Translations under genes and position numbers: made by a program
Source: Heterodontus francisci
Lineage: Eukaryota
Assembly: GCF_036365525.1 (NCBI RefSeq)
Contig: NC_090378.1
Span: forward strand, 119,459,593 to 119,523,592
Direction: 5' to 3'
DNA: 64,000 nt
Shown here: one piece after another, positions 351 to 64,000 of the stretch
Position numbering within the stretch: position 1 is the first letter of the stretch
Layout: every line of letters starts with the position of its first letter
Notes under the pieces: generated by a model
Seen by the model: only the letters and a program-made list of their open reading frames with translations
What the model was told of the DNA's origin: nothing
Databases searched by the model: none

Positions 351-639
351 TTCCTCCCCTTCTCAGTAAATGAGAGATGTAGTATGTGTCAATGGTTTGT
401 TTCCAAAAATGTAAAGTATAAACTTACACATAAATAGTTCACTTCGTTATTTAGTCACCGATGTATGATGGGCATTTTCTCTCACAAGTAGGATATTGTC
501 TGACATCAGGTGAAGTCTCATTTAACTCATGTTCTTCATCGGAGGTGTTGATGCTGAAATCGGATTCAATGTTTACGAGAGGTGTTTTCAGTGTTTGAAG
601 AATGACACGTTTCTTGTGATAATTTGTGAATCGTGCTCA

Positions 640-2871: not shown

Positions 2872-2965
2872 TTCTAATTCTTCACCTCCAAGTGTCAAAG
2901 TAAGGCCTTTTTCCTTGTGACGTCTGTGATAGTGAAACGTGCCATTGCATCTTCAAAACGTAGCA

Positions 2966-7451: not shown

Positions 7452-7981
7452 AGGATGTAAATGTGTTGGAATCAGTTCAGAGAAGGTTTATTAGACTAAT
7501 ACTTGGAATGTGCAGGTTTTCCTCTGAGGAAAGGTTGGACAGGTTAGGTTTATATCCACTGGAGTTTAGAAGAGTAAGAGGTGACTTGATGGAGACATAT
7601 AAGATTCCTGAGGGGTTTTGACAGGGTGGATGTGGAAAGGTTGTTTCTTCTTGTTGAAGAAACTAGAACTTGGGGTCACTATTTAAAAATAAGGTGTCAC
7701 CCATTTAATACAGAGTTGAGAATTCTTTTATTTCCAAGGGTCGTGACTCTTTGGAACTCTCTTTCTCAAAAGGCGATGGAAGCAGAGTCTATAAATATTT
7801 TTAAGGCAGAGGTGGATAGATTCTTGATAAGCAAGGGGGTGAAAGGTTATCATGGGTAGGAGGGAATGTGGTGTTGAGATTACAATCAGATCAGCCATGA
7901 TCTTATTGAATGGTGGAGGAGGTTCGAGGGGCCGAGTGGCCTACTCCTGTTCCTAATTCATATGTTTGTATTTATGTTTGT
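7452..7981 (+). mobile_element. 5'-truncated CR1-type LINE 3' end
   Basis: Translates DVNVLESVQRRFIRLILGM...EERLDRLGLYPLEFRRVRGDLMETYKI...RVVTLWNSL, with tail (TATGTTTG)-like repeats at 7961-7981. Confidence 0.9.
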
Positions 7982-8221
7982 AATCAAATCTTATGCTAAT
8001 GTGCTATTGATTGAGAGTTCAACCAGCCAATCATTAGAATCACTTGCTGAAATACAGCCAATCAACTGACAGGAATGTGGGACATTTCCAAAGTACTCCC
8101 GAGACATTTACTGAATATTCTTAATGTTTATTACCTTTTACAGATTTACATTTACAGTAAAAAGACTTGAATAAACAGCTCAGTGAGAGGAAGCTGGAGA
8201 AATTCACAGGGAGAATGAAGG

Positions 8222-8227
8222 TTTATT
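8222..8227 (-). terminator. Poly(A) signal AATAAA of the Ig light-chain transcript
   Basis: TTTATT on the plus strand, about 500 nt downstream of the C-exon stop. It is the first canonical hexamer I see after the stop. Confidence 0.7.
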
Positions 8228-8421
8228 AAAACAGTTGTGGAGATTTTCTCAATAACATGAGAATCCTGTCGCTTTAAACAGAGACTAAACTTTAAATTGT
8301 AACTGCAGGGTGAGCAGGAAGGAGGTCTGGTTTACTGAAGCAGCGACTTCTGAGGTTCACATTATTTTAGCTCAGCTGACAGTCTTCAGCATCTTAGAGA
8401 GGTTTTACTTGGCATCACGAG

Positions 8422-8567
8422 TCTACATTGTCCAATCAAACACTCCCAGGGCAGGTACAGTACGGGTTAGATACAGAGTAAAGCTCCCTCTACACTGTCC
8501 AATCAAACACTCCCAGGGCAGGTACAGTACGGGTTAGATACAGAGAAAAGCCCCCTCTACACTGTCC
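8422..8567. repeat. 67-bp tandem repeat (~2.2 copies) in the predicted 3' UTR
   Basis: TCTACA(T/C)TGTCCAATCAAACACTCCCAGGGCAGGTACAGTACGGGTTAGATACAGAG(T/A)AAAGC(T/C)CCC starts at 8422, 8489 and 8556. It resembles a dispersed minisatellite I recall as common in shark genomes. Confidence 0.9.
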
Positions 8568-8724
8568 CAATTTAGTGCCTTAACCCCTGATCCTCAGAGG
8601 TGTCTCAGACCCAGTCACGAGAAGGAAGAGAGTTGAAATTCCGTGCTGACAATGACCTTTATCCTCCCAGCTCACCCCTGTTATATTTAAAGTTGTGTCT
8701 CCTCTGCGGACTGTCTCTAACATT

Positions 8725-9053
8725 CTACACACATTCTGATCTGCTCACACTCTTACTGAGGGGAGAGGACAGGGTCTCGTGGGTGAGGGCACAGGAGAAG
8801 CGGGCGTTGGACTCCCAGTCAGAGCCAGAGAGGGTCAGCAGGCTGCTGACACTGTAGGTGCTGTCCGAAGCTCGCAGGTAATTGCTGGTCTGAACTCCGG
8901 CCGAAATGGCTGCACCGTCCTTCTTCCACTCCACCCCCACTTCATCGGGATAGAAGTGATCGGCAAGGCACACCAGGGTGGCAGTGCCCTTGGCCTTGAC
9001 CTCCTCCGGCGAGGGGGGCATCAGGGTCAGTGTGGGTTGAGACTTCTCTCGGC
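8725..9053 (-). CDS. IGKC: Immunoglobulin light-chain constant exon, kappa isotype (shark type III / NS4-like)
   Basis: A polypyrimidine tract and AG acceptor (TTTTTCTCTTCTCTTTCAG|GC, AG at 9055-9054) precede a phase-1 exon reading (S)REKSQPTLTLMPPSPEEVKAKGTATLVCLADHFYPDEVGVEWKKDG...STYSVSSLLTLSGSDWESNARFSCALTHETLSSPLSKSVSRSECV*. It has both C1-set Cys, the core Trp, the FYP motif and the C-terminal inter-chain Cys. It closely matches my recollection of horn-shark type III/nurse-shark NS4 constant regions. Confidence 0.96.
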
Positions 9054-9086
9054 CTGAAAGAGAAGAGAAAAACTGTTAATCACTGC

Positions 9087-9320
9087 ATGTTTGTGTATTT
9101 CTGTGTTCTATTTGTATATTTTTTGCTCTCTGTATATATTTGTGTGTTTTATGTATATATTTGTGTCTTTTGTCGGTATATTTGTGTGTCCTCTGTATAT
9201 ATTTGTGTGTTTTATGTATTTATTTGTGTGTTCTGTCTGTACATTTGTGTATTCTCTGTGTATATTTGTGTGTTCTATGTGTATATTTATGTGTATGTTT
9301 CTGTGGGTGTTTCTGTGTTT
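9087..9320. repeat. TG/TA-rich low-complexity repeat (~22-bp period) next to the C-exon acceptor
   Basis: Iterations of GTATATTTGTGTGTT(C/T)T(A/G)T. Confidence 0.85.
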
Positions 9321-9512
9321 GGAATTGTCACATCAGATAACAGACAGCTGAGTTAATGAACTACGGCTGGTGTTGAATCGTTAGAAATGAGCACCATCAC
9401 TTCTTAATTTGCCTCGCTTGCTAGGTTTAGTCTAAAATACAAAGACAGTGGATGGTTTGATGTTCAACTGGTTAAATTGTGTTCGACTGCTCTTGGAAGT
9501 ATGATATGGTAG

Positions 9513-10363
9513 TTTTTTTTATTCATTCATGGGATGTGGGCGTCGCTGGCCAGGCCAGCATTTATTGCCCATCACTAATAGCCCTTGAGAAGGTGGTGGT
9601 GAGCTGCCTTCTTGAACTGCTGCAGTCCATGTGGGGTAGGTACACCCACAGTGCTGTTAGGCAGGGAGTTCCAGGATTTTGACCCAGTGACAGTGAAGGA
9701 ACGGCGATATAGTTCCAAGTCAGGATGGTGTGTGGCTTGGAGGAGAACTTGCAGGTGGTGGTGTTCCCATGCAACTGCTGGCCTTTCCTCCTAGGTGGCC
9801 AGCCTTTGACCTGCTCTTGTAGCCACAGTATTTACAGGGCTACTGCAGTTCAGGTTCTGGTCAATGGTAACCCTCAGGATGTTGATAGTGGGGGATTCAG
9901 CGATCGTAATGCCATTGAATGTCAAGGGGAGATGGTTAGATTCTTTCTTATTTGAGATAGTCATTGCCTTTCACTTGTGTGACGCGAATGTTACTTGTTA
10001 CTTATCAGCCCAAGCGTGGACAGTGTCCAGGTTTTGCTGCATTTCTAGATAGTCTGTTTCCGTTTCTGTGGATTCGCGAATGGTGCTGAAGGTTGTGCAA
10101 TCATCAGCGAACATCCGCTCTTCTGACCTTATGGTGGAGGGAAGGTCATTGATGAAGCAACTGAAGATGGTTGGGCCTAGGACACTATGCTGAGGAACTC
10201 CTGCAGTGACGTCCTGGAGCTGAGATGATTGACCTCCAACAACCACAGCTATCTTCCTTTGTGCTAGGTATGACTCCAAACAGTCGAGAGATTTCCCCCT
10301 GATTCACACTGACTCTAGTTTTGCTCGGGCTTCTTGATTCCAGACTCAAATGCTGCCTTGATG
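9513..10363 (-). mobile_element. Second LINE (CR1/L2-clade RT fragment and 3' end) nested antisense in the CR1
   Basis: The minus strand reads ESYLAQRKIAVVVGGQSSQLQDVTAGVPQHSVLGPTIFSCFINDLP...MFADDCT (RT motifs) and ends in ATGAATGAATAAAAAAAA. It appears internally deleted near 9800. Confidence 0.88.
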
Positions 10364-10605
10364 ACAGTTATTACTGAAATGAGTCTGAAAGAAGGGCAGG
10401 AATGGCAGCTCAATATTCCTGATACTGAGTTTCCCAACGGGATAGAGAGGGAGAGAAAAAAGGAGAAGGGTTTCACAATATTAGTCAAAAGAAAAAATCG
10501 CAGCTGTGAGGAGGGATGATATTCAAGCAGGATCATCGAATGAGGACATTTGAATGAACGTAGGAACAAAAAAGGGGCAATCACATTGCTGCACTATATA
10601 TAGAC

Positions 10606-11301
10606 CAGGGGTCGGTAACCTTTATTACCTGAAGAGACTGTTTTCAAAAATATTACCTAAAATAAAAACTACTGGCAGCGTCAAGACCAAAATTCAGCAT
10701 TTCTAAACCAAATACCTTCTAAATTGCCAAGTGTCTCTGGTAGAATGCACACTTTGTATATATAATAAATAAAATACATGTATTGAATTTATGTATCAAT
10801 AGAAAAAAAGTCAAAATCAGAATAGGTTTCACTCTGAATTATTGCATTTTTTTGACTTGTTTTTGTATAATTTTGTCAGTAAAGTCAAAATTTAAAAAAA
10901 AAATTTAAATTCAGACGTGCAGAATTAAGACAATTTTTTCAGCTATTGATTCTCGTAATAAAAAAGAAGTTTCTAATAGCAGAATAATTTATCATCTCAG
11001 TGATATTAGAAACAATAATGGTCACAAACATAAAAGCTGTTCCTCCAATGGAAGCTGTACCACTCAAACAAGTTCATTTAGACAATGATGATGCTTTTCA
11101 TTTAAATAATCATTTGAAACTATAAAGTACAACATAATGATTAGTCTTTTATCCCCACAATAAAAACACAGTTTACTTTCCTTGACTGAATTTTTTCGGC
11201 CTTTTTCATGTTAATGTGATCCAACTGGAAAAGGTTGGCAGCTGTAAATGAGCTGTTAAAGAGTCACATGTGGCTCCGGAGCCGCAGGTTCCAGACTCCT
11301 G
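10606..11301. mobile_element. hAT/Charlie-type MITE (696 bp)
   Basis: TIRs CAGGGGTCGGTAACCT and CAGGAGTCTGGAACCT (reverse complement) match 13/16. The 8-bp TSD is ATATAGAC / CTATAGAC. AT-rich interior. It splits the CR1 YRP motif. Confidence 0.92.
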
Positions 11302-14291
11302 CTATAGACCCTCAAACAGTCAGAGGGAGAGAGAAGAGAAAATGTGTCGGCAAATTACTGAAAAGTGCAGAAACAACAGGCCAGTAATAGGAGGGGATTT
11401 CAACTTTCCAAATATTAACTGGGATAAATTCAGTATAAAAGGTACAGAGGGCGCAGAATTCCTAAAATACATTCGGGAGAACTTTTCTCATCAGTAGAAA
11501 GACCAACAAGAGAAGATACAGTTCTGGACTTAGTTTTCAGGAATGAATCTGGGCAGGTGGAAGGGGATCAATGTGAGAGTGTTTTAGTGGCAGTGATTAT
11601 AATTCAGTTAGATTTAGAGCAGTTATAGAAAAGGATAAAGATGGACCAAGAGTAAATGTTTTAAACTGGGAAAAGGCCAATTTTACTAAGCTGAGATGTG
11701 ATTTGTCAGAATTAGACTGGAAACAGCTACTTGAAGGTAAATCAGTGTCAGAGCAGTGGGAGGCATTCAAGGAGGAGATAGTGAGGGCTCAGAACAAACA
11801 TGTTCCCACAAAAGAAAAAGGGTGAGACTCCCAAATCTCCATTTACCACAGATGGCAAAGAGCATACACAGTAGGATAAGGTACAAAAGGGAAACTTATA
11901 TTGGATACTGAGATCTTGATACTGCAGAAAACCTGGAGAAGTGTAGAGAGTTCAGGGGTGAAATTGAAAAGGAAATTAGGGAAACAAAGAGAGGACATGA
12001 AAAAATATTAGCTAGTAAAATCAAGGAAAACCCAAAGATGTTTAATAAATACATATAGAGCCGGAGAATCACTAAGAAAAGAGCGGGGTAAATTGGAGTC
12101 CAAAAACCTAACCTGTGTGTGGAGGCGGAGGATGTGGACATGTTTCTGAATGAATACTTTGTGCCTTTTTTCACAGAGAGTGACAAAGCAGACATTGTAG
12201 TTAAGGAGGAGGAGTGTGAAATCTTGGATGGGATAAACTTAGTGAGGGAGGAAATATTAAGGTGTTTCACATCCTTGAAAATGGATAAATCACCAGGCCC
12301 AGGTGAAATGTATCCCAGGCTGCAAAGGAAGCAATGGGAGAAATAGCGGAGGCTCTGATCCTCATTTTCCAATTCTCTCTGGTTAAAGGCATGGTCCCTG
12401 AGGACTGGAGGACTGCTAATGTTGTACTGTTGTTTAAAAAGGAAAGAATGGATGGACCAAGTAATTACAGATCAGTCAGCATAACCTCGGCAGTGGGAGA
12501 ATTATTGGAAAAAGTTCTGAGAGACAGTAAAAACCATCATTTAGAGAAACACGGGATTAATTCAGGACAGTCAGCATGGATTTGTTAAGGGAAGTTTGTG
12601 TCTGACTAACGATTACATTTCATGAGGAGGTTACAAGGAGTGTCAAAGTGGGCGTCATGTTTGATATAGTCTACATGGATTTTAGCAAGGCCTTTGATAA
12701 GATCCCACATGGCAGACTGGTCAGAAAATTAAAAGCCCATGGGATCCAAGGAAAAGTGGGAAATTGGATCAAAAATTGAGTCAGTGACAGGAAGCAAAGT
12801 TTTATTGTCAACGGGTGTTTTTGTGAGTGGAAAGCTGTTTTCAGTGGGGTTCTGCAGGGCTCAGTACTGGGTCCACTGCTGATTATAGTATCTTTCAATG
12901 ATTTAGATTTAAATGGAAGGGGTATTAAGAAGTTTGTAGATGATACAAAAATAGGCCTTGCGGTTGATAATGAGGAAAAAAGCTGTAGACTGCAGGAAGA
13001 TATCAATGGACTGGTCAGGTGGGCAGAAAAATAGCAAATGGAATTCAGTCCAGAGAAATGTGAGGTAATGCATTTGGGGAGGACAAACGAGGCAAAGGAA
13101 TATCCAATAAATGGGATGATACTGAGAAGTGTAGAGGAACTGAGGGACCTTGGAGTTCATGTCCACAGATCCCTGAAGGTCGCAGGACAGCTAGATAAGG
13201 TGGTTAAGAAGGCTTACGGGATGCTTGCCCTTATTCGCTGAGGCCTGGAGTATAAGGGTAAGGAGGTTATGCCAGAACTGTAGAAAACACTAGTTAGACC
13301 ACAGCTAGAAAACTGTGTACAGTTCTGGTCACCACATTACAGGAAGGATGTGATCAAACAAGAGGGGGTACAGAGGAGATTTACGAGGATGTTACCAGGA
13401 ATGGAGAATTTTACCTATGAGGAAAGATAGGATCGGCTGGGATTGTTATCTCTGGAACAGAGGAGACTGAGGGGAGATTTAATTGAGGTGTATAAAATTA
13501 TGAGGGGCCTAGATAGAGTGGATAGGAAGGACCTACTTCCCGCAGCAGAGAGGTCAATAACCCAGCGGCATAGATTTAAATTAATTGGTGGAAGGGTGAG
13601 AGGTGAATTGAGGAGTAATATTTTCACCCAGAGGGTGTTGGGGGTCTGGAACTCACTGCCTGAAAGGGTGGTAGAGGCAGAAACTCTCATCACATTGAAA
13701 AAACACTTGGATATGCACTTGAGGTGCCGAAACCTACAGGGATATGGGAATAAGAGCTGGAAAGTGGGATTAGGTTTGTTAACTCATTTTCAGCTGGCAT
13801 GGAAACCATGGGCCGAATGGCCTCATCTGCATTGTAAATCTTTCTATGTTTCTCTGTATAAATGTCTCTAATGAAGGTTTATCACCAATTCAGCACTGAA
13901 ATGGTTAATAGTAAGAGTGTTTAAAGACTCAGTGTCCCTTTAAGACACTGTTAACCTGACAGGAAGCTCGAACTGTAGATCAGTCTATCTGGAGGAAACA
14001 GGCTCAGTGTTAACAAATCTCAGATCACACACACATCCTGAGAACTTTCTCCGAGAACACTGGAGCAGACTTGTATCAACACATGTCAGAAAGGATTCAT
14101 GTTGGGTGTCGGTGCAGAAGGTTTTCGATTTCATTTAAAACCTTCTTGTCCAACACTGGGGTGAGGTCAAGGGTGAGGTTATAATCAGTCTCAGTGTACT
14201 GGGGTCAGGCAGGGTCACTGCTCCAAATGATCCCATGACCCCTGGAAGGTGAGAGTGTGCGCGAGGGTCAGGATCAGGAGCCTCCAAACTC

Positions 14292-14685
14292 AAAGAAAGA
14301 CTTGCATTTCTATAGTGCCTGTCACTACCTCAGGATGTCCCAAAGTGTTTTACGGCCAATTGTGCACAGCAAGATCCCAGACAGCTGAGTGATAATGAGC
14401 AGATAATCTGATTTTCAGTGCTGTTGGTTGAGTGATAAACATTGTCCAGAACACCGAGGAGAACTCCCCTGCTCTTCTAATAGTGCAGTGGGATCCTTTA
14501 CATTCACCTGAGAGGGCAGACGTCAGTTTGTCTCATCTGAAAGACAGCACCTCTGACAATGCAGCACTCCCTCAATACTGCACTGTAGTGTCAGCCTGGA
14601 TTATGTGCTCCAGTCTCTGGAGTGGGACTTGAAGCCACGACATTCTGACTCAGAAGTGAGAGTGCGACCCACTGAGGCAACACTA
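14292..14685 (-). mobile_element. tRNA-derived SINE with Deu-domain-like body (SacSINE1/AmnSINE-like)
   Basis: The minus-strand head has A-box-like CTCAGTGGGT and B-box-like GCTTCAAGTCCC, then CCAGGCTGACACTACAGTGCAGTATTGAGGGAGTGCTGCATTGTCAGAGGTGCTGTCTTTCAGATGAGAC, and tail AAATGCAAGTCTTTCTTT. Family assignment is from recognition, not a search. Confidence 0.75.
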
Positions 14686-15084
14686 AAACCTCACAGTCGA
14701 ATAGCCTGCCATTCTCAACCTCCCGGCTCACACTTGGAGGAATGAGGCCACTTGGGGAGGGTGGAGCTGTGCCCCAGCCAGAGATAGTGCCTTCAGGAGA
14801 GAGATGGAGAGCAGATTACGGGAGACCTGTAGTCTAGAGGGGTGACATTTAACCAGTCGATGGCAGGTGCTGAGCCCTTTCCCCGTAAGTATTATGTAAG
14901 TCGATGGGGAAAGTGGGAGGGGCACTAGAGTAACACCTTTGTTGCTGCTGAAACTCTTGCTATCTGCTCAGTCATGTCTAATAAACACACAGACAAATCA
15001 GACAAACATTAGTCGGTTTTCTGTGGATTTTCTGCTGGGTTCAGCTTTAATCAACAGGGTATTGTGGGAGCTCCCGGTTAATAA

Positions 15085-15292
15085 AAAGAAAAGAAAGACT
15101 TGTATTTATATCGAGTATTTCACACCTCAGGACCTCCCAAAGTCATTTACAGACAATGAAGGACTTGTTTAAAGAGCAGTCACTGTTTGAATGCAGGAAA
15201 TGTGGCAGACAATTTGTGCACAGCAAGATCCCACAAACAGCAATGAGGTAAATGAACATTTTCAGTGACATCGGTTCAGAGATAAATATCAG
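15085..15292 (-). mobile_element. 3' half of a second copy of the same SINE
   Basis: Shares AAAGACTTG.ATTT.TAT, CCTCAGGA..TCCCAAAG and TGTGCACAGCAAGATCCCA with the copy at 14292-14685. It is truncated at the putative LTR. Confidence 0.75.
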
Positions 15293-16198
15293 TGTCATGC
15301 AGGCCCCCACCTGCCAAGAATGAGGCACATTAATTTCACCATATGAACACTGCTTTTTAATCTGTTGCTGGAGTAAAGAAAGAACTTGTTTTTAAAAAAC
15401 AACACCAGGCCCTTGACTGGAAAGACATTGGCATAATAACAGACAGAACTTGGAAGGGACAAAAGACCATTTCCTGACAAATTCAATCCACAATGGACTT
15501 TTGAATACCAGACATTGAGGATGGAGGAGCTCCCATTCCAGCTTGACTGCTAAGATGGCCGACTACACCATCGGACATGGCCAGACCAGTTTAGTCACAT
15601 GACTAACTGGCTGTTGTAGTTTTTTGAATTTGAACTTGCCACAGAGAATTTGAACTCAGAAAGCTGTTTGCTCCTGGACTGAAAAGACTTTTCATGGCTG
15701 GCTTGCCACTGTCTCTCTCCCATTGGCTTTCATCTCTCTGACCAGCTTCAGGAATCATTGAAGACATATGAACCGCAAGAGGGAAAAGTCTCCCACAGTG
15801 AACAAGGTTTAAGAAGAATACTGGGCCCCAATGAAAAGCAACACCTACCGACAAGCAAGGACTACAGTGAGCTCGAAGCACAGTAACAAAAACTCTCTTC
15901 AGAGATTGCCTCAAACCTCTGCACTTTATTTTTCTTCTGCTCTTTTCTGTCTCTATTTGCATGTGTGTATCGCATATGCATGCTAGCATGGGGCATGGCG
16001 TGTATCCGTACGCGTTAACTGAATTAGAGTTTTAGTTTAAGTTTTAATAAATTTCACCTTTCTTCTTTAAACCTAAGAAAACCTGTTTGTGCTCATTTCT
16101 TTGCCTCACACAGTGTGTTTCAAATTAAATCTTGTTACAGTAAGACCAGGTGAAGGCTGTGAAAGACCCCTAGAGACTTTCATCACCTGGTCAGAACA
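15293..16198 (+). mobile_element. Putative solo LTR (~0.9 kb)
   Basis: Begins TGTCATG and ends CAGAACA (TG..CA, imperfect terminal inverted repeat). AATAAA near 16046. Non-coding. The flanks ATCAG / ATCGA are only an imperfect TSD. Confidence 0.55.
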
Positions 16199-16735
16199 AT
16201 CGACCTGAACTTGACCCAAAGACAAAGCAACTGAGAGTCTCCCCAAAACCCTGGAACACTGAAGCCACTGGATTGGGAGCCCTGCTGTCGCTGTTTGTCA
16301 TCAGAACTTTGACAAGAGATAAGCAGGGAGTGGACAGAGCAGAGTTAAAGCTGGGGGAGGTGGGACCTTGGTGTCTCACTGTGCTGGTGCTGAGATCAGT
16401 TCTATCAGAGACTGTGACAGAGACCCAGAGCTCACACTGAGACTGGCAGGAGTCTAGTGAGGGATTTCACTCCATGGAGCAGGAATGTGACCACAGTCTG
16501 CAAACGTCCAGATCTCCTCTACACACTCGGTAAAAGTTGGTTACTTATATCTTGCTGGTTAAAGGGGGAATGTAACTAAAGAAATACAGCTGGGCACCCT
16601 GTTATACACAGTGCTCTTCAATGAACCATTTCATTGACTGCAGCTCCTTACTAACACCTTCCACTATTCAGCATTTGTGTTTTCAAAAGTTTCAGTATTT
16701 AAAGGATTAATAACGGAGGATTGAGGTTTACTTAC

Positions 16736-16770
16736 TCAGTCTGAGCTTGGTTCCTTTACCGAACGTAAAC
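16736..16770 (-). CDS. IGKJ: Immunoglobulin light-chain J segment (kappa type), unrearranged
   Basis: G TTT ACG TTC GGT AAA GGA ACC AAG CTC AGA CTG A|GTAAGT gives FTFGKGTKLRL with the FGxGTKL motif. The phase-1 donor at 16735-16730 splices in frame to the C exon (A+GC = Ser). Confidence 0.96.
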
Positions 16771-16809
16771 CACACTGACAGCTTCCAGTGCAGGGGCTGT
16801 ACAATATCC
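16771..16809 (+). promoter_or_regulatory. 23-bp-spacer recombination signal sequence of the J segment
   Basis: Heptamer CACACTG (16771-16777), exactly 23-nt spacer ACAGCTTCCAGTGCAGGGGCTGT, nonamer ACAATATCC (16801-16809). A J with a 23-RSS is the kappa configuration. Confidence 0.93.
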
Positions 16810-16810
16810 T

Positions 16811-17675
16811 CTGCTCTCTGTTTCACTCACTCACTCTCACCCTCTCTCTGTCTTTCACTGTCACTGTGTCTCTCTCTCTGTCACTCTTTGCCTGTGTGTA
16901 TGTGTGTCTCTGTCTCTCACACTCTCTCTATATATATCTATTTGTCTCTGTCTCTATGTGTGCTTCTGTCTGTCTCTGTCTGTGTGTGTCGTTCACAGTG
17001 TGTCACACTCTGTCTCTGCTACTTTGGGTTTCTCTCACATTCTGTCTCTCTCTCATTGTTTTCTCTCACTCTGTCTCTTTCACTCTCTCATTATGTCCCT
17101 CTCTCTCACTCCCTGTTACTCTGTCTCTGTCACACGCTCTCTCTCTCTCACACTCTCTCTCAATCTGTCTCTCTCTTTCTCTCACTCACTCTGTCTCTCT
17201 TTCTCACTCTCTCTCACTCCCTCACTCTGTCTCTCTTTTTCTCCCTCTCACTGTCTCTCTCTTTCTTTCTCTCTCACTCTCTCTCTCTTTCTCACTCTCA
17301 CTCTCTCATTCTGCCTCACTCTGTCTCTCTNNNNNNNNNNNNNNNNNNNNNNNNNNNNNNNNNNNNNNNNNNNNNNNNNNNNNNNNNNNNNNNNNNNNNN
17401 NNNNNNNNNNNNNNNNNNNNNNNNNNNNNNNNNNNNNNNNNNNNNNNNNNNNNNNNNNNNNNNNNNNNNNNNNNNNNNNNNNNNNNNNNNNNNNNNNNNN
17501 NNNNNNNNCTCTCATTCAGTCTCACTCTGTCTCTCTTTTTCTCCCTCTCACTATCTCTCTCTTTCTCTCTCTCTCACTCTCTCACTTTGTCTCTCTTTCT
17601 CACTCTGTCTCTCTTTTTCTCCCTCTCACTCTCTCTCTCTTTCTCTCTCTCTCACTTTCTCTCTCTCTGTCTCTA
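16811..17675. repeat. CT/CA-rich compound microsatellite spanning an assembly gap
   Basis: (CT)n/(CTCA)n/(CTGT)n mosaic on both sides of the N run. Confidence 0.95.
17331..17508. other. Assembly gap (178 N)
   Basis: Run of N. The true size is unknown. Confidence 1.
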
Positions 17676-17681
17676 ACAGAC

Positions 17682-18453
17682 TGGGATGAATTCTCCCGGT
17701 GCCATGGAGACGGGGTTCTCATTTGGAGGTTGGGCAGGACTGGGAAAAATACGACGAGCCGTGTCAACATGGCTCCCTGACACATTCCCGCCTCCGGGTT
17801 ACTTTCCCATGGGTGTACTGGGAACCGGTCATCTGCTGCCTCCATGGAGATGGGCAGACAATTAGAGCAATGAAGTTCACATTTAGGGGCCATTTTTGAG
17901 CCGGTGCTGGTATTTTACCAACGTCGGAGCGGCCTCCCCACCCCCGAGTGCGGAGGCCACCAGCTCAATGGAGGAGGCCTCCCGGCAGCAGGCCAGGGGA
18001 CCATCGGAGACGGAGACTCTATGTCCCAATGACAGAGCTACAGGGATGAAAAGCTGCAGTCCCGCCTGTTAATAATCCTGTGGAGGAGTTTCCTAACCCT
18101 AACCCTCTTCAACCTGATGGCCCAACTGGCTTCAGCCCTTTTTATTTTACTATTCCTCTGCAGGCAGCCAAGGGCGTCTCCATGTTGAGGGGCCCTCACT
18201 CTCGCCTGCCTGTTTCAGCAGGGCCCACCTCTCCCGGTGGAGCTGCCAGCCTGACATCACTGTGGGCCCTCTGATTGGGCCTGCAGGCTCGGGAGCCTGA
18301 CTGCCATCATTAATAGGACAGTGAGTGTGGAGGTGACCAATTAAGAGGCTGCCTCCCAGAAAGTTGCTCCGGCGAGTGCTGATGACATGGGCAGGCTCGG
18401 GACCCTCATATAGGCCAGAAGTCAGAGTCCCAATGTCCACTGGGCCAACCAGC
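17682..18453. mobile_element. Unclassified GC-rich interspersed repeat, possibly a PIF/Harbinger-derived non-autonomous element
   Basis: GC-rich non-coding block between two microsatellites, starting GGGATGAATTCTCC and ending CAGCC. The resemblance to shark MITE ends is only impressionistic. Confidence 0.3.
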
Positions 18454-18715
18454 CATCTCTCTCTCTCACGCTGTCCCTCTTGTGCTCTTTCCCTCTGTCT
18501 ATCTCACTATCTCCCTCTCTCTCTTTCTCTCATTCTCTTTCTCTCACTCTTTCTCTCTCTCTATCTGTCTCTCTCTAGCACTTTCTCTCTCTCTCCTACT
18601 GTCTCTCTTTATCTCTCTCTCTCTCTCTCACTGTCTCTCTTTCTGTCATTCTCTCTCTCCCACTGTCTCTGTTTCTCTCTCTCTCCTGCTGTCTCAGCTT
18701 CACTCTCTCTCTCTG
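18454..18715. repeat. CT-rich microsatellite
   Basis: (CT)n mosaic. Confidence 0.95.
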
Positions 18716-18968
18716 TTTGAATTCCATGCTGCCATGCTTGGGAAAGTTGGGAATTCTACTTGTCGATGATAAATCTTCCAGCTGCTCTTCCCACCACATC
18801 AGATGGAAAAACCTGGAGCCACTCAATTCCTGGAAAATGAAAATCTCCCAGCTAACCGAGCTCACCTGCCTGTGCCCTGGAGAAAAGGGGAGGAGTGTTT
18901 CTGTAAATGTGATGTTTCTGTTGCTGACTCTGGTCTTCCTCATGGACCATTTGAAAACAGTGAGTTTC

Positions 18969-19400
18969 AGAGTCGGTGGATCATGTCTACATGGAGTGGG
19001 AGAGGTTGTGGCCCCTGTTCCATTATTTGAAGGGGCTGCTCCTCATCCTCTGGTTCTAATTCAGGCCCACACTCCTGATCTTTGGCCACCCAGTGCAGAG
19101 GGGACTGGGCAGGTTGGAGGCCCCTCCTCGTGGGTCTGCTCCTGGGCCTGGCCAAGGTGTCCATCCACAGGCCCGAGTTGGATGGGACCCATGGGGGTGG
19201 TGGCACTGGCTGCCAGTCTCTCTACCATGGCATTGTCCCCACCCGGGTGGCCCTGGAGAAGGAGCAGGGGGTGTCTGCTGGGTCACTTGAGGCCTTCAGG
19301 CTGCAGTGGGCACCACAGGGACAGGAGTGTGTAGTGGATCGTGGAAATAACATCAGGCTTTAATTTGTTCAGTTTGCTTTCTATTTATGATTTCAGTTTT
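18969..19400 (+). mobile_element. 3' end of a Tx1-clade non-LTR retrotransposon ORF2
   Basis: ESVDHVYMEWERLWPLFHYLKGLLL..*FRPTLLIFGHPV and LVGLLLGLAKVSIHR...RVALEKEQGVSAGSLEAFRLQWAPQG match the post-zinc-knuckle C-terminus of Tx1-like ORF2. Contains a stop and a frameshift. Confidence 0.75.
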
Positions 19401-19830
19401 ATTCATTTCGACACTTTTCTAAATTGGATTTTGATTGGTGAAAATTGTGTCATCCAGATTGTCCAATCAGATGATAAGAAACCTGTTTCCATAGTAACTG
19501 ACCTGGGGTGTCTGACCTGGGATGGGGGGTCAATAATAATGATCAATAATTAGTCTGTGCTCATGAAGCGACTCCACGAGAACCCAGAGAGAATCGAATG
19601 AAGCAAAATGTCAAATCTCCAGAGCTGTGAGATTCTCACTGATGAAGACAGCAGCTCCTCGTCCTCTCTAAACTCCTCCATCCTTTCTCAATTCCTCACA
19701 CCGTTCAGGGGAATGTTTCTGTCAACACTCTCATCGACACATGTGGCAGCAATGCACAAAACAGCAAATATTTCCCAGATAGATAAGACAGGAGATTGAA
19801 GCAACTGTTTTAATAGAACGTCTGTTTATT

Positions 19831-52800: not shown

Positions 52801-55800
52801 TATATTATATATAACTGTGGAACGTGTAAATCAAGGAGGTGGGACTGTGTCTCCATTATTATATATTATATATAACTGTGGAACGTGTCAGTCGAGGAGG
52901 TGGGACTGTGCGTCCCTGATTATATATTATATATAACTGTGGAAAGTGTCAGTCGAGGAGGTGGGACTGTGTGTCCATTATTATATATTATATATAATTG
53001 TCGGATGTGTCAGTGCGGGAGGTGGGACTGTGTGTCCATTATTATATACTATATATAACTGTGGGATGTGTCAGTGCGGGAGGTGGGACTGTGTGTCCAT
53101 TATTATATACTATATATAGCTGTGGGATGTGTCAGTGCGGGAGGTGGGACTGTGTGTCCATTATTATATATTATATATAACTGTCGGATGTGTCAGTACA
53201 GGTGGTGGGACTGTGTGTCCATTATTATATATTATATATAACTGTGGGATGTGTCAGTGCGGGAGGTGGGACTGTGTGTCCATTATTATATACTATATAT
53301 AACTGTGGGATGTGTCAGTGCGGGAGGTGGGACTGTGTGTCCATTATTATTATTATATATAACTGTGGGATGTGTCAGTGCAGGAGGTGGGACTGTGTGT
53401 CGATTATTATATATTATATATAACTGTGGGATGTGTCAGTGCAGGTGGTGGGACAGTGTGTCCATTATTATATATTATATATAACTGTGGGATGTTTCAG
53501 TGCGGGAGGTGGGACTGTGTTTCCATTATTATATATTATATATAACTGTGGAACATGTCAGTCGAGGAGGTGGGACTGTGCGTCCATTATTATATATTAT
53601 ATATAACTGTGGGATGTGTCAGTGCGGGAGGTGGGACTGTGTGTCCATTATTATATATTATATATAACTGTGGGATGTGTCAGTGCGGGAGGTGGGACTG
53701 TGTGTCCATTATTATATATTATATCTAACTGTGGGATGTGTCAGTGCGGGAGGTGGGACTGTCTGTCCATTATTATATATTATATATAACTGTGGGATGT
53801 GTCAGTGCGGGAGGTGGGACTGTCTGTCCATTATTATATATTATATATAACTGTGGAACGTGTCAGTCGAGGAGGTGGCACGGTGCGTCCATTAATATAT
53901 ATTATATATAACTGTGGGATGTGTCAGTGCAGGAGGTGGGACTGTGTGACCATTATTATATATTATATATAACTGTGGGATGTGTCAGTGCGGGAGGTGG
54001 GACTGTCTGTCCATTATTATATATTATATATAACTGTGGAACGTGTCAGTCGAGGAGGTGGCACGGTGCGTCCATTAATATATATTATATATAACTGTGG
54101 GATGTGTCAGTGCAGGAGGTGGGACTGTGTGTCCATTATTATATATTATATATAACTGTGGAACGTGTCAGTCGAGGAGGTGGCACGGTGCGTCCATTAA
54201 TATATATTATATATAACTGTGGAACGTGTCAATACAGGAGGTGGGACTGTGCGTCCATTATTAGATATTATATATAACTGTGGGATGTGTCAGTGCGGGA
54301 GGTGGGACTGTCTGTCCATTATTATATATTATATATAACTGTGGAACGTGTCAGTCGAGGAGGTGGCACGGTGCGTCCATTAATATATATTATATATAAC
54401 TGTGGGATGTGTCAGTGCAGGAGGTGGGACTGTGTGTCCATTATTATATATTATGTATAACTGTGGAACGTGTCAGTCGAGGAGGTGGGACTGTGCGTCC
54501 ATTATTAGATATTATATATAACTGTGGGATGTGTCAGTGCGGGAGGTGGGACTGTGTGTCCATTATTATATACTATATATAACTGTGGGATGTGTCAGTG
54601 CGGGAGGTGGGACTGTGTGTCCATTATTATATACTATATATAACTGTGAGATGTGTCAGTGCGGGAGGTGGGACTGTGTGTCTTTTATTATATACTATAT
54701 ATAACTGTGGGATGTGTCAGTGCGGGAGGTGGGACTGTGTGTCCATTATTATATATTATATATAACTGTGGGATGTGTCAGTGCAGGTGGTGGGACAGTG
54801 TGTCCATTATTATATATTATATATAACTGTGGGATGTTTCAGTGCGGGAGGTGGGACTGTGTTTCCATTATTATATATTATATATAACTGTGGGATGTGT
54901 CATAATGGGAGGTGGGACTGTGTTTCCATTATTATATATTATATATAACTGTGGGATGTGTCAGTGCAGGTGGTGGGACAGTGTGTCCATTATTATATAT
55001 TATATATAACTGTGGGATGTTTCAGTGCGGGAGGTGGGACTGTGTTTCCATTATTATATATTATATATAACTGTGGGATGTGTCAGTGCGGGAGGTGGGA
55101 CTGTGTGTCCATTATTATATATTATATATAACTGTGGAACGTGTCAGTCGAGGAGGTGGTACTGTGCGTCCATTATTATATATTATATATAACTGTGGGA
55201 TGTGTCAGTGCGGTAGGTGGGACTGTCTGTCCATTATTATATATTATATATAACTGTGGAACGTGTCAGTCGAGGAGGTGGCACGGTGCGTCCATTATTA
55301 TATATTATATATAACTGTGGGATGTGTCAGTGCAGGAGGTGGGACTGTGTGTCCATTATTATATATTATATATAACTGTGGAACGTGTCAGTCGAGGAGG
55401 TGGGACTGTGCGTCCATTACTATATATTATATATAACTGTGGAACGTGTAAATCAAGGAGGTGGGACTGTGTCTCCATTATTATATATTATATATAACTG
55501 TGGAACGTGTCAGTCGAGGAGGTGGGACTGTGCGTCCCTGATTATATATTATATATAACTGTGGAAAGTGTCAGTCGAGGAGGTGGGACTGTGTGTCCAT
55601 TATTATATATTATATATAATTGTCGGATGTGTCAGTGCGGGAGGTGGGACTGTGTGTCCATTATTATATACTATATATAACTGTGGGATGTGTCAGTGCG
55701 GGAGGTGGGACTGTGTGTCCATTATTATATACTATATATAACTGTGGGATGTGTCAGTGCGGGAGGTGGGACTGTGTGTCCATTATTATATATTATATAT

Positions 55801-58800
55801 AACTGTCGGATGTGTCAGTACAGGTGGTGGGACTGTGTGTCCATTATTATATATTATATATAACTGTGGGATGTGTCAGTGCGGGAGGTGGGACTGTGTG
55901 TCCATTATTATATACTATATATAACTGTGGGATGTGTCAGTGCGGGAGGTGGGACTGTGTGTCCATTATTATTATTATATATAACTGTGGGATGTGTCAG
56001 TGCAGGAGGTGGGACTGTGTGTCGATTATTATATATTATATATAACTGTGGGATGTGTCAGTGCAGGTGGTGGGACAGTGTGTCCATTATTATATATTAT
56101 ATATAACTGTGGGATGTTTCAGTGCGGGAGGTGGGACTGTGTTTCCATTATTATATATTATATATAACTGTGGAACATGTCAGTCGAGGAGGTGGGACTG
56201 TGCGTCCATTATTATATATTATATATAACTGTGGGATGTGTCAGTGCGGGAGGTGGGACTGTGTGTCCATTATTATATATTATATATAACTGTGGGATGT
56301 GTCAGTGCGGGAGGTGGGACTGTGTGTCCATTATTATATATTATATCTAACTGTGGGATGTGTCAGTGCGGGAGGTGGGACTGTCTGTCCATTATTATAT
56401 ATTATATATAACTGTGGAACGTGTCAGTCGAGGAGGTGGCACGGTGCGTCCATTAATATATATTATATATAACTGTGGGATGTGTCAGTGCAGGAGGTGG
56501 GACTGTGTGTCCATTATTATATATTATATATAACTGTGGGATGTGTCAGTGCGGGAGGTGGGACTGTCTGTCCATTATTATATATTATATATAACTGTGG
56601 AACGTGTCAGTCGAGGAGGTGGCACGGTGCGTCCATTAATATATATTATATATAACTGTGGGATGTGTCAGTGCAGGAGGTGGGACTGTGTGTCCATTAT
56701 TATATATTATATATAACTGTGGAACGTGTCAGTCGAGGAGGTGGCACGGTGCGTCCATTAATATATATTATATATAACTGTGGAACGTGTCAATACAGGA
56801 GGTGGGACTGTGCGTCCATTATTAGATATTATATATAACTGTGGGATGTGTCAGTGCGGGAGGTGGGACTGTCTGTCCATTATTATATATTATATATAAC
56901 TGTGGAACGTGTCAGTCGAGGAGGTGGCACGGTGCGTCCATTAATATATATTATATATAACTGTGGGATGTGTCAGTGCAGGAGGTGGGACTGTGTGTCC
57001 ATTATTATATATTATGTATAACTGTGGAACGTGTCAGTCGAGGAGGTGGGACTGTGCGTCCATTATTAGATATTATATATAACTGTGGGATGTGTCAGTG
57101 CGGGAGGTGGGACTGTGTGTCCATTACTATATATTATATATAACTGTGGAAAGTGTAAATCAAGGAGGTGGGACTGTGTCTCCATTATTATATATTATAT
57201 CGAACTGTGGAACGTGTCAGTCGAGGAGGTGGGACTGTGCGTCCATTATTATATATTATATATAACTGTGGAAAGTGTCAGTCGAGGAGGTGGGACTGTG
57301 TGTCCATTCTTATATATTATATATAACTGTGGGATGTGTCAGTGCGGGAGGTGGGACTGTGTGTCCATTATTATATATTATATATAACTGTGGGATGTGT
57401 CAGTACAGGAGGTGGGACTGTGTGTCCATTATTATATATTATATATAACTGTGGAACGTGTCAGTCGAGGAGGTGGGACTGTGCGTCCATTATTATATAT
57501 TATATATAACTGTGGGATGTGTCAGTTCGGGAGGTGGGACTGTGTGTCCATTATTATATATCATATATAAATGTGGGATGTGTCAGTGCAGGAGGTGGGA
57601 CTGTGTGTCCATTATTATATATTATATATAACTGTCGGATGTGTCAGTGCGGGAGGTGGGACTGTGTGTCCATTATTATATATTCTAGATAACTGTCGGA
57701 TGTGTCAGTACAGGAGGTGGGACTGTGTGTCCAATATTATGTCTTATATATAACTGTGGGATGTGTCAGTGCGGGAGGTGGGACTGTGTGTCCATGAACA
57801 TTTATTATATATAACTGTGGGATGTGTCAGTACAGGACGTGGGACTGTGAGCCCATTATTATATATTCTAGATAACAGTGGGATCTGTCAGGACAGGAGG
57901 TGGGGCTGTGTGTCCAATATTATATATTATATATAACTGTCGGATGTGTCAGTACAGGAGGTGGGACTGTGTGTCCAATATTATGTCTTATATATAACTG
58001 TGGGACGTGTCAGTCCAGGAGGTGGGACTGTGTGTCCATTATTATATATTAGATATAACTGTGGGATGTGTCAGTACAGGAGGTGGGACTGTGTGTCCAT
58101 TATTATATATTATATATAAATGTGGGATGTGTCAGTGCAGGAGGTGGGACTGTGTGTCCATTATTATATATTATATATAACTGTGGGATGTGTCAGTGCG
58201 GGAGGTGGGACTGTGTGTCCATGAACATATATTATATATAACTGTGGGATGTGTCAGTACAGGACGTGGGACTGTGAGCCCATTATTATATATTCTAGAT
58301 AACAGTGGGATGTGTCAGTACAGGGGGTGGGACTGTGTGTCCATTATTATATATTATATATAACTGTGGGATGTGTCAGTGCAGGAGGTGGGACTGTGTG
58401 TCCATTATTATATATTATATATAACTGAGGGATGTGTCAGGACAGGAGGTGGGACTGTGTGTCGATTATTATATATTATATATAACTGTGGGATGTGTCA
58501 GTACAGGAGGTGGGACTGTGTGTCCATTATTATATATTATATATAAATGTGGGATGTGTCAGTGCAGGAGGTGGGACTGTGTGTCCATTATTATATATTA
58601 TATATAACTGTGGGATGTGTCAGAGCGGGAGGTGGGATTTTGTGTCCATTATTATATATAATATATAAATGTGGGATGTGTCAGTGCAGGAGGTGGGACT
58701 GTGTGTCCATTATTATCTATTATATATAACTGTGGGATGTGTCAGTGCGGGAGGTGGGACTGTGTGTCCATTATTATATATGATATATAACTGTGGGATG

Positions 58801-61800
58801 TGTCAGTGCGGGAGGTGGGACTGTGTGTCCATTATTATATATTATATATAACTGTGGGTTGTGTCAGTAGAGGAGGTGGGACTGTGAGTCCATTATTATA
58901 TATAATATATAATTGTGGGATGTGTCAGTGCAGGAGGTGGGACTGTGTGTCCAATATTATATATTATATATAACTGTGGGATGTGTCAGTGCGGGAGGTG
59001 GGACTGTGTGTCCATTATTATATATTATATATAACTGTGGAACGTGTCAGTGTGGGAGGTGGGACTATGCGTCCATTATTATATATTATATATAACTGTG
59101 GAAAGTGTCAGTCGAGGAGGTGGGACTGTGTGTCCATTATTATATATTATATATAACTGTGGGATGTGTCAGTGCGGGAGGTGGGACTGTGTGTCCATTA
59201 TTATATATTATATATAACTGTGGGATGTGTCAGTACAGGAGGTGGGACTGTGTGTCCAATATTATGTCTTATATATAACTGTGGGACGTGTCAGTCCAGG
59301 AGGTGGGACTGTGTGTCCATTATTATATATTAGATATAACTGTGGGATGTGTCAGTACAGGAGGTGGGACTGTGTGTCCATTATTATATATTAAATATAA
59401 CTGTGGGATGTGTCAGTACAGGAGGTGGGACTGTGTGTCCATTATTATATATTATATATAAATGTGGGATGTGTCAGTGCAGGAGGTGGGACTGTGTGTC
59501 CATTATTATATATTATATATAACTGTGGGATGTGTCAGTGCGGGAGGTGGGACTGTGTGTCCATGAACATATATTATATATAACTGTGGGATGTGTCAGT
59601 ACAGGACGTGGGACTGTGAGCCCATTATTATATATTCTAGATAACAGTGGGATGTGTCAGTACAGGGGGTGGGACTGTGTGTCCATTATTATATATTATA
59701 TATAACTGTGGGATGTGTCAGTGCAGGAGGTGGGACTGTGTGTCCATTATTATATATTATATATAACTGAGGGATGTGTCAGGACAGGAGGTGGGACTGT
59801 GTGTCGATTATTATATATTATATATAACTGTGGGATGTGTCAGTACAGGAGGTGGGACTGTGTGTCCATTATTATATATTATATATAAATGTGGGATGTG
59901 TCAGTGCAGGAGGTGGGACTGTGTGTCCATTATTATATATTATATATAACTGTGGGATGTGTCAGAGCGGGAGGTGGGATTTTGTGTCCATTATTATATA
60001 TAATATATAAATGTGGGATGTGTCAGTGCAGGAGGTGGGACTGTGTGTCCATTATTATCTATTATATATAACTGTGGGATGTGTCAGTGCGGGAGGTGGG
60101 ACTGTGTGTCCATTATTATATATGATATATAACTGTGGGATGTGTCAGTGCGGGAGGTGGGACTGTGTGTCCATTATTATATATTATATATAACTGTGGG
60201 TTGTGTCAGTAGAGGAGGTGGGACTGTGAGTCCATTATTATATATAATATATAATTGTGGGATGTGTCAGTGCAGGAGGTGGGACTGTGTGTCCAATATT
60301 ATATATTATATATAACTGTGGGATGTGTCAGTGCGGGAGGTGGGACTGTGTGTCCATTATTATATATTATATATAACTGTGGAACGTGTCAGTGTGGGAG
60401 GTGGGACTATGCGTCCATTATTATATATTATATATAACTGTGGAAAGTGTCAGTCGAGGAGGTGGGACTGTGTGTCCATTATTATATATTATATATAACT
60501 GTGGGATGTGTCAGTGCGGGAGGTGGGACTGTGTGTCCATTATTATATATTATATATAACTGTGGGATGTGTCAGTACAGGAGGTGGGACTGTGTGTCCA
60601 ATATTATGTCTTATATATAACTGTGGGACGTGTCAGTCCAGGAGGTGGGACTGTGTGTCCATTATTATATATTAGATATAACTGTGGGATGTGTCAGTAC
60701 AGGAGGTGGGACTGTGTGTCCATTATTATATATTAAATATAACTGTGGGATGTGTCAGTACAGGAGGTGGGACTGTGTGTCCATTATTATATATTATATA
60801 TAAATGTGGGATGTGTCAGTGCAGGAGGTGGGACTGTGTGTCCATTATTATATATTATATATAACTGTGGGATGTGTCAGTGCGGGAGGTGGGACTGTGT
60901 GTCCATGAACATATATTATATATAACTGTGGGATGTGTCAGTACAGGACGTGGGACTGTGAGCCCATTATTATATATTCTAGATAACAGTGGGATGTGTC
61001 AGTACAGGGGGTGGGACTGTGTGTCCATTATTATTTATTATATATAACTGAGGGATGTGTCAGGACAGGAGGTGGGACTGTGTGTCCATTATTATATATT
61101 ATATATAACTGTGGGATGGGTCAGTGCGGGAGGTGGGACTGTGTGTCGATTATTATATATTATATATAACTGTGGGATGTGTCAGAGCGGGAGGTGGGAT
61201 TTTGTGTCCATTATTATATATAATATATAAATGTGGGATGTGTCAGTGCAGGAGGTGGGACTGTGTGTCCATTATTATCTATTATATATAACTGTGGGTT
61301 GTGTCAGTAGAGGAGGTGGGACTGTGTGTCCATTATTATCTATTATATATAACTGTGGGATGTGTCAGTGCGGGAGGTGGGACTGTGTATCCATTATTAT
61401 ATATTATATATAACTGTGGGTTGTGTCAGTAGAGGAGGTGGGACTGTGAGTCCATTATTATATATTATATATAATTGTGGGATGTGTCAGTGCAGGAGGT
61501 GGGACTGTGTGTCCAATATTATATATTATATATAACTGTGGGATGTGTCAGTGCGGGAGGTAGGACTGTGTGTCCAATATTATATATTATATATAACTGT
61601 GGGTTGTGTCAGTAGAGGAGGTGGGACTGTGAGTCCATTATTATATATAATATATAATTGTGGGATGTGTCAGTGCGGGAGGTGGGACTGTGTGTCCATT
61701 ATTATATATTATCTATAACTGTGGGTTGTGTCAGTAGAGGAGGTGGGACTGTGAGTCCATTATTATATATAATATATAATTGTGGGATGTGTCAGTGCGG

Positions 61801-64000
61801 GAGGTGGGACTGTGTATCCAATATTATATATTATGTATAACTGTGGGATGTGTCAGTGCAGGAGTTGGGACTGTGTGTCCAATATTATATATTATGTATA
61901 ACTGTGGGTTGTGTCAGTAGAGGAGGTGGGACTGTGAGTCCATTATTATATATAATATATAATTGTGGGATGTGTCAGTGCAGGAGGTGGGACTGTGTGT
62001 CCAATATTATATATTATATATAACTGTGGGATGTGTCAGTGCGGGAGGTGGGACTGTGTGTCCATTATTATATATTATATATAACTGTGGAACGTGTCAG
62101 TGTGGGAGGTGGGACTATGCGTCCATTATTATATATTATATATAACTGTGGAAAGTGTCAGTCGAGGAGGTGGGACTGTGTGTCCATTATTATATATTAT
62201 ATATAACTGTGGGATGTGTCAGTGCGGGAGGTGGGACTGTGTGTCCATTATTATATATTATATATAACTGTGGGATGTGTCAGTACAGGAGGTGGGACTG
62301 TGTGTCCATTATTATATATTATATATAACTGTCGAACGTGTCAGTCGAGGAGGTGGGACTGTGCGTCCAATATTATATATTATATATAACTGTGGAAAGT
62401 GTCAGTCGAGGAGGTGGGACTGTGTGTCCATTATTATATATTATATATAACTGTGGGATGTGTCAGTGCGGGAGGTGGGACTGTGTGTCCATTATTATAT
62501 ATTATATATAACTGTGGGATGTGTCAGTACAGGAGGTGGGACTGTGTGTCCATTATTATATATTATATATAACTGTCGAACGTGTCAGTCGAGGAGGTGG
62601 GACTGTGCGTCCAATATTATATATTATATATAACTGTGGGATGTGTCAGTGCGGGAGGTGGGACTGTGTGTCCATTATTATATATCATATATAAATGTGG
62701 GATGTGTCAGTACAGGAGGTGGGACTGTGTGTCCACTATTATATATTATATATAACTGTGGGATGTGTCAGTGCAGGAGGTGGGACTGTGTGTCCATTAT
62801 TATATATTATATATAACTGTGGGATGTGTCAGTCCAGGAGGTGGGACTGTGTGTCCACTATTATATATTATATATAACTGTGGGATGTGTCAGTGCAGGA
62901 GGTGGGACTGTGTGTCCATTATTATATATTATATATAACTGTCGGATGTTTCAGTGAGGGAGGTGGGACTGTGTGTCCATTATTATATATTCTAGATAAC
63001 TGTCGGATGTGTCAGTACAGGAGGTGGGACTGTGTGTCCATTATTATATATCATATATAAATGTGGGATGTGTCAGTACAGGAGGTGGGACTGTGTGTCC
63101 ATTATTATATATTATATATAACTGTGGGATGTGTCAGTGCAGGAGGTGGGACTGTGTGTCCATTATTATATATTATATATAACTGTCGGATGTGTCAGTG
63201 CGGGAGGTGGGACTGTGTGTCCATTATTATATATTCTAGATAACTGTCGGATGTGTCAGTACAGGAGGTGGGACTGTGTGTCCAATATTATGTCTTATAT
63301 ATAACTGTGGGATGTGTCAGTGCGGGAGGTGGGACTGTGTGTCCATGAACATATATTATATATAACTGTGGGATGTGTCAGTACAGGACTTGGGCCTGTG
63401 AGCCCATTATTATATATTCTAGATAACAGTGGGATCTGTCAGGACAGGAGGTGGGGCTATGTGTCCAATATTATATATTATATATAACTGTCGGATGTGT
63501 CATAATGGGAGGTGGGACTGTGTTTCCAATATTATATATTATATATAACTGTGGAACGTGTCAGTCGAGGAGGTGGGACTGTGCGTCCATTATTATATAT
63601 TATATGTAACTGTGGGATGTGTCAGTGCGGGAGGTGGGACTGTCTGTCCATTATTATATATTATATATAACTGTGGAACGTGTCAGTCGAGGAGGTGGCA
63701 CGGTGCGTCCATTATTATATATTATATATAACTGTGGGATGTGTCAGTGCAGGAGGTGGGACTGTGTGTCCATTATTATATATTATATATAACTGTGGAA
63801 CGTGTCAGTCGAGGAGGTGGGACTGTGCGTCCATTATTAGATATTATATATAACTGTGGGATGTGTCAGTGCGGGAGGTGGGACTGTGTGTCCATTACTA
63901 TATATTATATATAACTGTGGAACGTGTAAATCAAGGAGGTGGGACTGTGTCTCCATTATTATATATTATATATAACTGTGGAACGTGTCAGTCGAGGAGG
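19831..64000. repeat. 61-bp tandem satellite array, >44 kb (~720 monomers), head-to-tail, continuing past the window end
   Basis: Consensus ATAACTGTGGGATGTGTCAGT(A/G)C(A/G)GGAGGTGGGACTGTGTGTCCATTATTATATATTATAT. I saw no inversion or foreign insertion. Confidence 0.99.

Follow-up and report, generated by a model that had tools for sequence, protein, structure and literature searches.

The horn shark DNA considered here, 64,000 nucleotides of the Heterodontus francisci contig NC_090378.1 (called the window and C8, respectively), raises a simple question: where is the variable (V) segment of its immunoglobulin (Ig) kappa gene? A sequence-only reading of the window had described an intact joining (J) segment with its recombination signal sequence (RSS) and splice donor, an intact constant (C) exon with a poly(A) signal, no V segment, and a giant satellite where V is expected. 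Three options were put forward, namely that the unit is a V-less orphan that could only be used by joining with another cluster, that a satellite expansion has pushed V more than 47 kb away, or that V is hidden by a gap of 178 N (17331-17508) or by a mis-join. We find that the second option is the right one. The unit is a complete, unrearranged leader-V-J-C kappa cluster on one strand, and its V-less look is a window-edge effect.

V was located with a full kappa chain as the query against the genome. The search, which covers the flanking scaffold as the sequence-only reading had suggested, gives a V kappa match at C8:119527842-119528162, 4.2 kb past the right end of the window. The V exon is found on the minus strand at C8:119528149-119527848 (L031:5150-4849), with an open frame and a Pfam V-set match (E value 2.6e-18). 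It is followed on the same strand by a 12-RSS with consensus heptamer and nonamer, read from the sequence at C8:119527847-119527820 (L031:4848-4821), and preceded by a 186-base GT-AG intron and a leader exon of 49 bases (L031:5385-5337, minus strand). This leader intron is spliced out in contigs of X5, a sequencing run that is probably RNA. About 110 bases upstream, outside the window, there is what we take to be an octamer-like motif. V and its 12-RSS are on the same strand as J and C and face the 23-RSS of J at an RSS-to-RSS distance of 51,485 bases, and the satellite is unbroken up to 8 bases from the V nonamer. The satellite is thus indeed where V was expected, as a 61-bp array from position 19826, while the absence of V that it seemed to imply does not hold. 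For the orphan J-C unit one can cite the lack of any V within the 64-kb window; with an intact, same-strand V carrying a consensus 12-RSS immediately beyond the array, that is, linked in cis, this option is practically excluded.

The J and C parts of the cluster, which were described correctly before, are both on the minus strand. The motif and RSS scan places the J kappa segment, FTFGKGTKLRL, at 16736..16770, with the donor GTAAGT, and its 23-RSS at 16771..16809 (heptamer 16771-16777 with one mismatch, a 23-base spacer, and nonamer 16801-16809 with two). The J-C intron of 7.7 kb (9054..16735), whose splicing is seen in contigs of probable-RNA runs, ends with an AG acceptor at 9055-9054. The constant exon, 8725..9053, is an open frame of 109 residues with a stop codon, and AATAAA poly(A) signals are read at 8222..8227 and 8127-8132. 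The exon matches Pfam C1-set (E value 2e-23), and its protein is 100% identical to the horn shark 'kappa light chain-like' records P0002/P0003; the identities are 95-100% to horn shark kappa records and 85% to the nurse shark record P0008. Other C exons of the genome have at most 49% identity to kappa C, and a PDB search with C returns generic Ig constant domains only. By its sequence, the gene of the window classifies as an Ig kappa (type III) light-chain cluster. The claim that no V lies within the window also stands. A motif and RSS scan of positions 1-20000 finds neither V nor a good 12-RSS on either strand, and a teleost-like V downstream of C or inverted is found neither in positions 1-8700 nor in the genome protein search.

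We now turn to the other kappa clusters, since the sequence-only reading had treated this one as a one-off. The region C8:115.6-124.8 Mb holds kappa C, J and V in equal number, 28 of each, and these form 28 V-J-C units (15 minus, 13 plus), which we number 1-28 along C8, the cluster of the window being 11; the kappa protein searches also gave weaker matches to other Ig genes. All 28 V-J spacers were analysed at full length. Every kappa cluster found in the genome has the same layout, with V, J and C alternating on one strand in 1:1:1 order, and neighbouring kappa C exons are at least 74 kb apart. The V frame is open and the V heptamer is CACAGTG in all 28, the V nonamer is consensus in 23, the leader donor is GT in 27, and the leader intron has 186 bases in 27 and 187 in one; the split leader and the open V frame both hold for cluster 11. 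On the J side the nonamer is identical in 28 and the heptamer in 27. No further V, J or C was found by tblastn in any of the spacers, that of the window included (no match at E<=1). None of the clusters is germline-joined: all 28 are split, which rules out a fused VJ gene without RSS.

The spacers span 7,537-216,649 bases with a median of 48,950, and 25 of them have at least 20 kb, which amounts to a 29-fold range across clusters with almost identical signals and promoters. Clusters 19 and 25, for example, share the same V protein and have spacers of 22.6 and 28.5 kb. None of the 28 has a compact spacer of ca 0.5 kb, a trait described for NS4 that does not define the isotype (the minimum is the 7,537 bases just given, against 51,485 in cluster 11). 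In RefSeq, gene models that connect V, J and C over these long spacers are already present, without comment.

Some variation among the clusters was also observed. In cluster 4 (L035; V near C8:117591891) the leader donor is AT, the sole case in 28, and this cluster is possibly non-functional on that account. The J of cluster 13 (L070; C8:120123463) has a second heptamer change, CAGTATG, which may weaken its RSS. By J-C intron length the clusters form groups at ca 4, ca 7-8 and ca 10-11 kb. Those with the 4-kb intron also have a C protein that has diverged (96-97%), a J of the L type and a spacer tail unlike the others, and mark a kappa subfamily. An F-type J is found in 11 of the 28 clusters.

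The remaining option, a V concealed by the gap or by a mis-join, can now be addressed. Between J and the satellite there is a tail of ca 3 kb without satellite (16810..19825), which contains CT/GA-rich tracts and the 178 N and is colinear with clusters 8, 15, 21 and 27. The N cannot hide V, because their flanks are colinear, position for position, with the N-free clusters 8, 15 and 21: all share a 3,110-base tail, and tail positions 1-2372 and 2551-3110 align to the same positions in these three. A mis-join is unlikely, as all 28 clusters have the same order: satellite right next to the V RSS, then the short tail and J.

As to the satellite itself, Tandem Repeats Finder reports the 61-bp array in the window from 19826 to the end (724.7 copies, score 70083). 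It is on the minus strand, occupies 19826..64000 and continues for 4.2 kb past the window end, to ca C8:119527811, so that the array of cluster 11 comprises in all ca 48.4 kb and ca 785 units. Arrays make up 1.50 of the 1.59 Mb of the 28 spacers (ca 94%). In every cluster the satellite begins 8 bases past the V nonamer, with its first anchor, counted from the V heptamer, at offset 36. An exact 44-mer of the unit has 4,421 matches in the 6.0-Gb genome, 4,415 of them inside the 28 spacers and always in the same orientation as V; this figure for confinement concerns the one exact 44-mer, and diverged relatives may exist elsewhere.

One may ask whether the assembler has inflated or mis-joined these arrays. 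All of them come from a single assembly, and near-identical cluster pairs make some false duplication possible. However, 27 of the 28 spacers are free of N, the only N being those in the window, and the arrays are heterogeneous, with 4,379 distinct sequences among 22,464 units of 61 bp. Units shared in order number 778 of 784 between clusters 11 and 21, two separately placed copies, 636 between 11 and 15, with block gains and losses, and 137 between 11 and 5, which is a graded divergence of paralogues. Arrays of close paralogues change length by blocks of units, as is seen also in the pairs 18/24 and 19/25. Insertions of long interspersed nuclear elements (LINEs) are found at different offsets and in both orientations in several arrays, and in another organism, too, a DNA contig continues from V through the RSS into the unit. 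An assembly artefact is therefore very unlikely. Heterogeneous and graded, with LINE insertions, they look like evolving arrays; within the assembly the swelling of the spacer by satellite is genuine, and it is general to the kappa clusters found in the genome. The LINE insertions, which are young and 97-100% identical to each other, were observed at L127:5306-8515 and in the satellite of clusters 7, 9, 10, 13, 22, 23 and 28, and the one in cluster 13 has an open endonuclease/reverse-transcriptase frame of 1,069 residues.

It is important to point out the presence of twins among the clusters. Clusters 9-11 form an inverted, near-identical twin of clusters 23-21 (119.10-119.53 vs 122.81-123.25 Mb of C8) with colinear arrays, and a direct twin pair is formed by clusters 6 and 12, whose spacers both have 27,375 bases. 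The pairs 9/23, 10/22, 11/21 and 6/12 show 0-4 substitutions in 2 kb. They could be haplotype duplicates or else the product of very recent duplication.

Where does the repeat come from? Gene-model read-throughs of the V end in other sharks match the RSS and the first 20-50 bases of the unit. Nine such proteins from species other than the horn shark were chosen by eye from 23 viewed, of 27 found; seven of the nine outscore all of 500 shuffles (Cetorhinus, Scyliorhinus, Chiloscyllium, Stegostoma), and the other two, P0017 and P0023, have no match to the V flank. In a DNA run of organism C (X14), one contig of 807 bases comprises leader, V and RSS and extends into the unit, with 94 differences. 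Of the contigs aligned, 142 in all from X14 and 378 from X17 (organism D), many are short ones on the unit, where the summed contig depth is not a copy number. Given its match to V flanks of other sharks, the monomer is likely to be an old V-flank sequence that has grown in place, and the 61-bp unit has probably been amplified in other sharks too.

Taken as a whole, we consider it very probable that the window belongs to a complete shark kappa cluster whose V-J spacer has been swollen to 51.5 kb by a 61-bp repeat grown in place, and that B cells use the cluster via RAG deletion. The facing 12-RSS of V and 23-RSS of J would be joined by RAG, within the cluster and not between clusters, and the whole spacer would be deleted. 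Because the spacer is lost on joining, a repeat in it would cost little, would be tolerated and could grow. The monomer would derive from the sequence directly behind the V RSS, the array would grow by unequal exchange or slippage, and it would spread by cluster duplication. In mammals, RAG routinely joins segments this far apart. Their Ig kappa locus pairs a 12-RSS V with a 23-RSS J across tens of kb or more; there, one C serves many V and several J, the distance comes from other genes, and a kappa-deleting element is present. The cluster here has the same 12/23 arrangement for long-range joining, and differs in that its spacer is one repeat.

Evidence of joining comes from the runs X5 and X6. 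Contigs with J spliced to C number 63 in X5 and 42 in X6, with the J donor end at 16735, and among the contigs listed J is joined to varied V ends at 16766-16770. On the V of cluster 11, 19 contigs of X5 depart from the coding end into J-like letters, with a consensus agreement of only 0.56. The clusters with this V end (11, 14, 15 and 21) have spacers of 46-103 kb, and all of them carry an F-type J. In addition, a kappa chain in the nr database, WKK30311.1, is 6 residues from V 11/21 and has an F-type J like that of cluster 11; its QQA together with the F-type J is a slightly better fit to 11/21. Long-range V-J joining across these spacers is thus likely to occur, but it is not attributable to the copy in cluster 11, because clusters 14, 15 and 21 have the same V end. 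Assigning expression to cluster 11 by contig depth was dropped, as depth is not a measure of expression.

Several points weigh against this picture. The array lengths rest on one assembly, and the twin pairs, if they are haplotype duplicates, would cut the cluster count, such that the true number could be 24-28. X5 and X6 come from a single sample, RNA by our guess, in the form of short contigs, and none of the reads or contigs connects this V with this J or C. The V protein of cluster 11 equals that of cluster 21, its 3' end is common to clusters 14, 15 and 21, and WKK30311.1 has equally 6 differences from the V of clusters 19/25. Finally, the RSS itself lies within the read-through matches and inflates their scores.

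Another scenario considered was that V and J recombine mainly between clusters, with the 9-Mb kappa region acting as a loose translocon. Here, some neighbouring clusters lie closer to each other than the longest spacers are long (124-217 kb), the signals of all clusters are near-identical, and both orientations are present. On the other hand, the strict 1:1:1 order of V, J and C is kept in 28 of 28 clusters, the J-like letters that follow V of this type agree (weakly) with the J type of its own cluster, and shark Ig heavy-chain rearrangement is almost wholly within miniloci (PMC2435157). Recombination mainly between clusters is quite unlikely.

A different possibility is that the satellite takes an active part in recombination, its length and RSS-like sites tuning rearrangement, or the sites acting as decoys that consume V or J and so help to limit a B cell to one cluster; we regard this as unlikely. 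It would be in line with the start of the array, which is fixed at 8 bases from the nonamer in all 28 clusters, and with the near-total confinement to the spacers. In the commonest unit there are two sites that differ from the heptamer by no more than 1 mismatch, and also a weak signal with a 23-base spacer, oriented like the V RSS; these features were picked post hoc and are matched in 0.0014 and 0.0026 of 20,000 dinucleotide shuffles. CAC occurs 96,420 times on the V-RSS strand and 1,187 times on the other, although such a strand bias is a trivial outcome of one tandem unit. Kappa is dominant in the nurse shark and sigma-2 in the horn shark (PMC5192425). However, the nonamer-like part lacks the A tract and has 3 mismatches, and 12-spacer sites number only 3 in 1.5 Mb, which leaves J without a proper partner in the array. 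The weak 23-spacer motif of the unit was also considered as a decoy resembling a kappa-deleting element, and among the X5 joints listed there is no strand-changing V-satellite joint. The 29-fold length spread and the 0.5-kb spacer of the nurse shark suggest a dispensable array. In its strongest form, the length of this RSS-derived satellite (7.5-217 kb), with its thousands of heptamer-like sites, would be a heritable dial on cluster rearrangement, that is, a distance-based control. We find this doubtful; if true, cluster-type antibody loci would have the distance-based control that the compact-minilocus model denies them.

Returning to the reading in which the spacer is a tolerated repeat, it is instructive to compare with known systems. 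In the nurse shark NS4 kappa gene, 502-524 bp separate V from J (Lee et al. 2000, PMC2193156). According to the same text, NS4 and horn shark type III likewise have a single V, a single J and a single C, split, with type III reported as all split, and the NS4 leader intron of 186 bp has the length found in 27 of the 28 clusters here. Compared to NS4 (PMC2193156), the spacers here are 51.5 kb in cluster 11 and 7.5-217 kb over the 28, ca 94% satellite, and no copy is germline-joined. In the nurse shark IgM miniloci the segments are ca 400 bp apart, and long-distance recombination and locus contraction are argued to be absent (PMC2435157). These miniloci resemble the kappa genes here in being widely spaced clusters with rearrangement expected within the cluster, but the kappa spacers are 19- to 540-fold longer. 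Shark joining is also described elsewhere as usually taking place within a cluster (PMC12227049, PMC4279169). In the literature covered, mostly titles and the beginnings of abstracts, no description of long or satellite-filled shark V-J spacers was found. What we have is a satellite-swollen spacer in a known type of shark kappa cluster, not found described.

Shark Ig clusters are the standing example of a system that needs no long-range recombination, with spacings of ca 400-500 bp and in-cluster joining (PMC2435157, PMC2193156). If kappa is rearranged despite spacers of 7.5-217 kb, then 'within cluster' becomes separable from 'because segments close'. With a 29-fold spacer range and near-identical signals, one repertoire experiment can measure the effect of distance on RAG joining and on cluster choice. 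There is also a warning here: short-read assemblies and screens by polymerase chain reaction would break or miss such genes and report false V-less units.

The other light-chain clusters of the genome, on C46, C36 and C23, are also V-J-C, but compact or joined. With one cluster taken of each, the V-J distance is ca 380 bp (L206) or ca 390 bp (L209), and V and J are joined in L208, all without an array; L206 had 1 loose anchor match, which is not an array, while L207 (J near the end only) and L210 (intended as a heavy-chain control; no V/J motif) gave no spacing. We take the isotypes of these clusters to be sigma-2, sigma and lambda. At C46:16.27-16.87 Mb there are more than 30 near-identical light-chain-like C exons, ca 16 kb apart, and the one sampled there has a V-J distance of ca 380 bp.

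A lone kappa-like J was observed on C2 (L085:5137-5357, C2:125446136-125446356), with a diverged 23-RSS, the heptamer CAGCGTG and the donor GTAAAT. There is no satellite in the 10 kb around it, and the protein searches find no kappa C or V on C2; it is likely a true orphon J.

Finally, we mention the rest of the window. Rfam has no match in positions 1-20500, and Pfam gives nothing for the open reading frames 13431-13868 and 1352-1810. The non-repetitive part at 390-1660 resembles a retrotransposon pol/integrase fragment on the minus strand, an impression from the open reading frame 1349-1810. Downstream of C there is a second tandem array with a 45-bp unit (2968-7453), interrupted by a retroelement-like piece. 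In the J-C intron, the part at ca 11400-13800 is by its look presumably LINE-like and decayed, and its sequence matches pieces in L085, the C2 locus.

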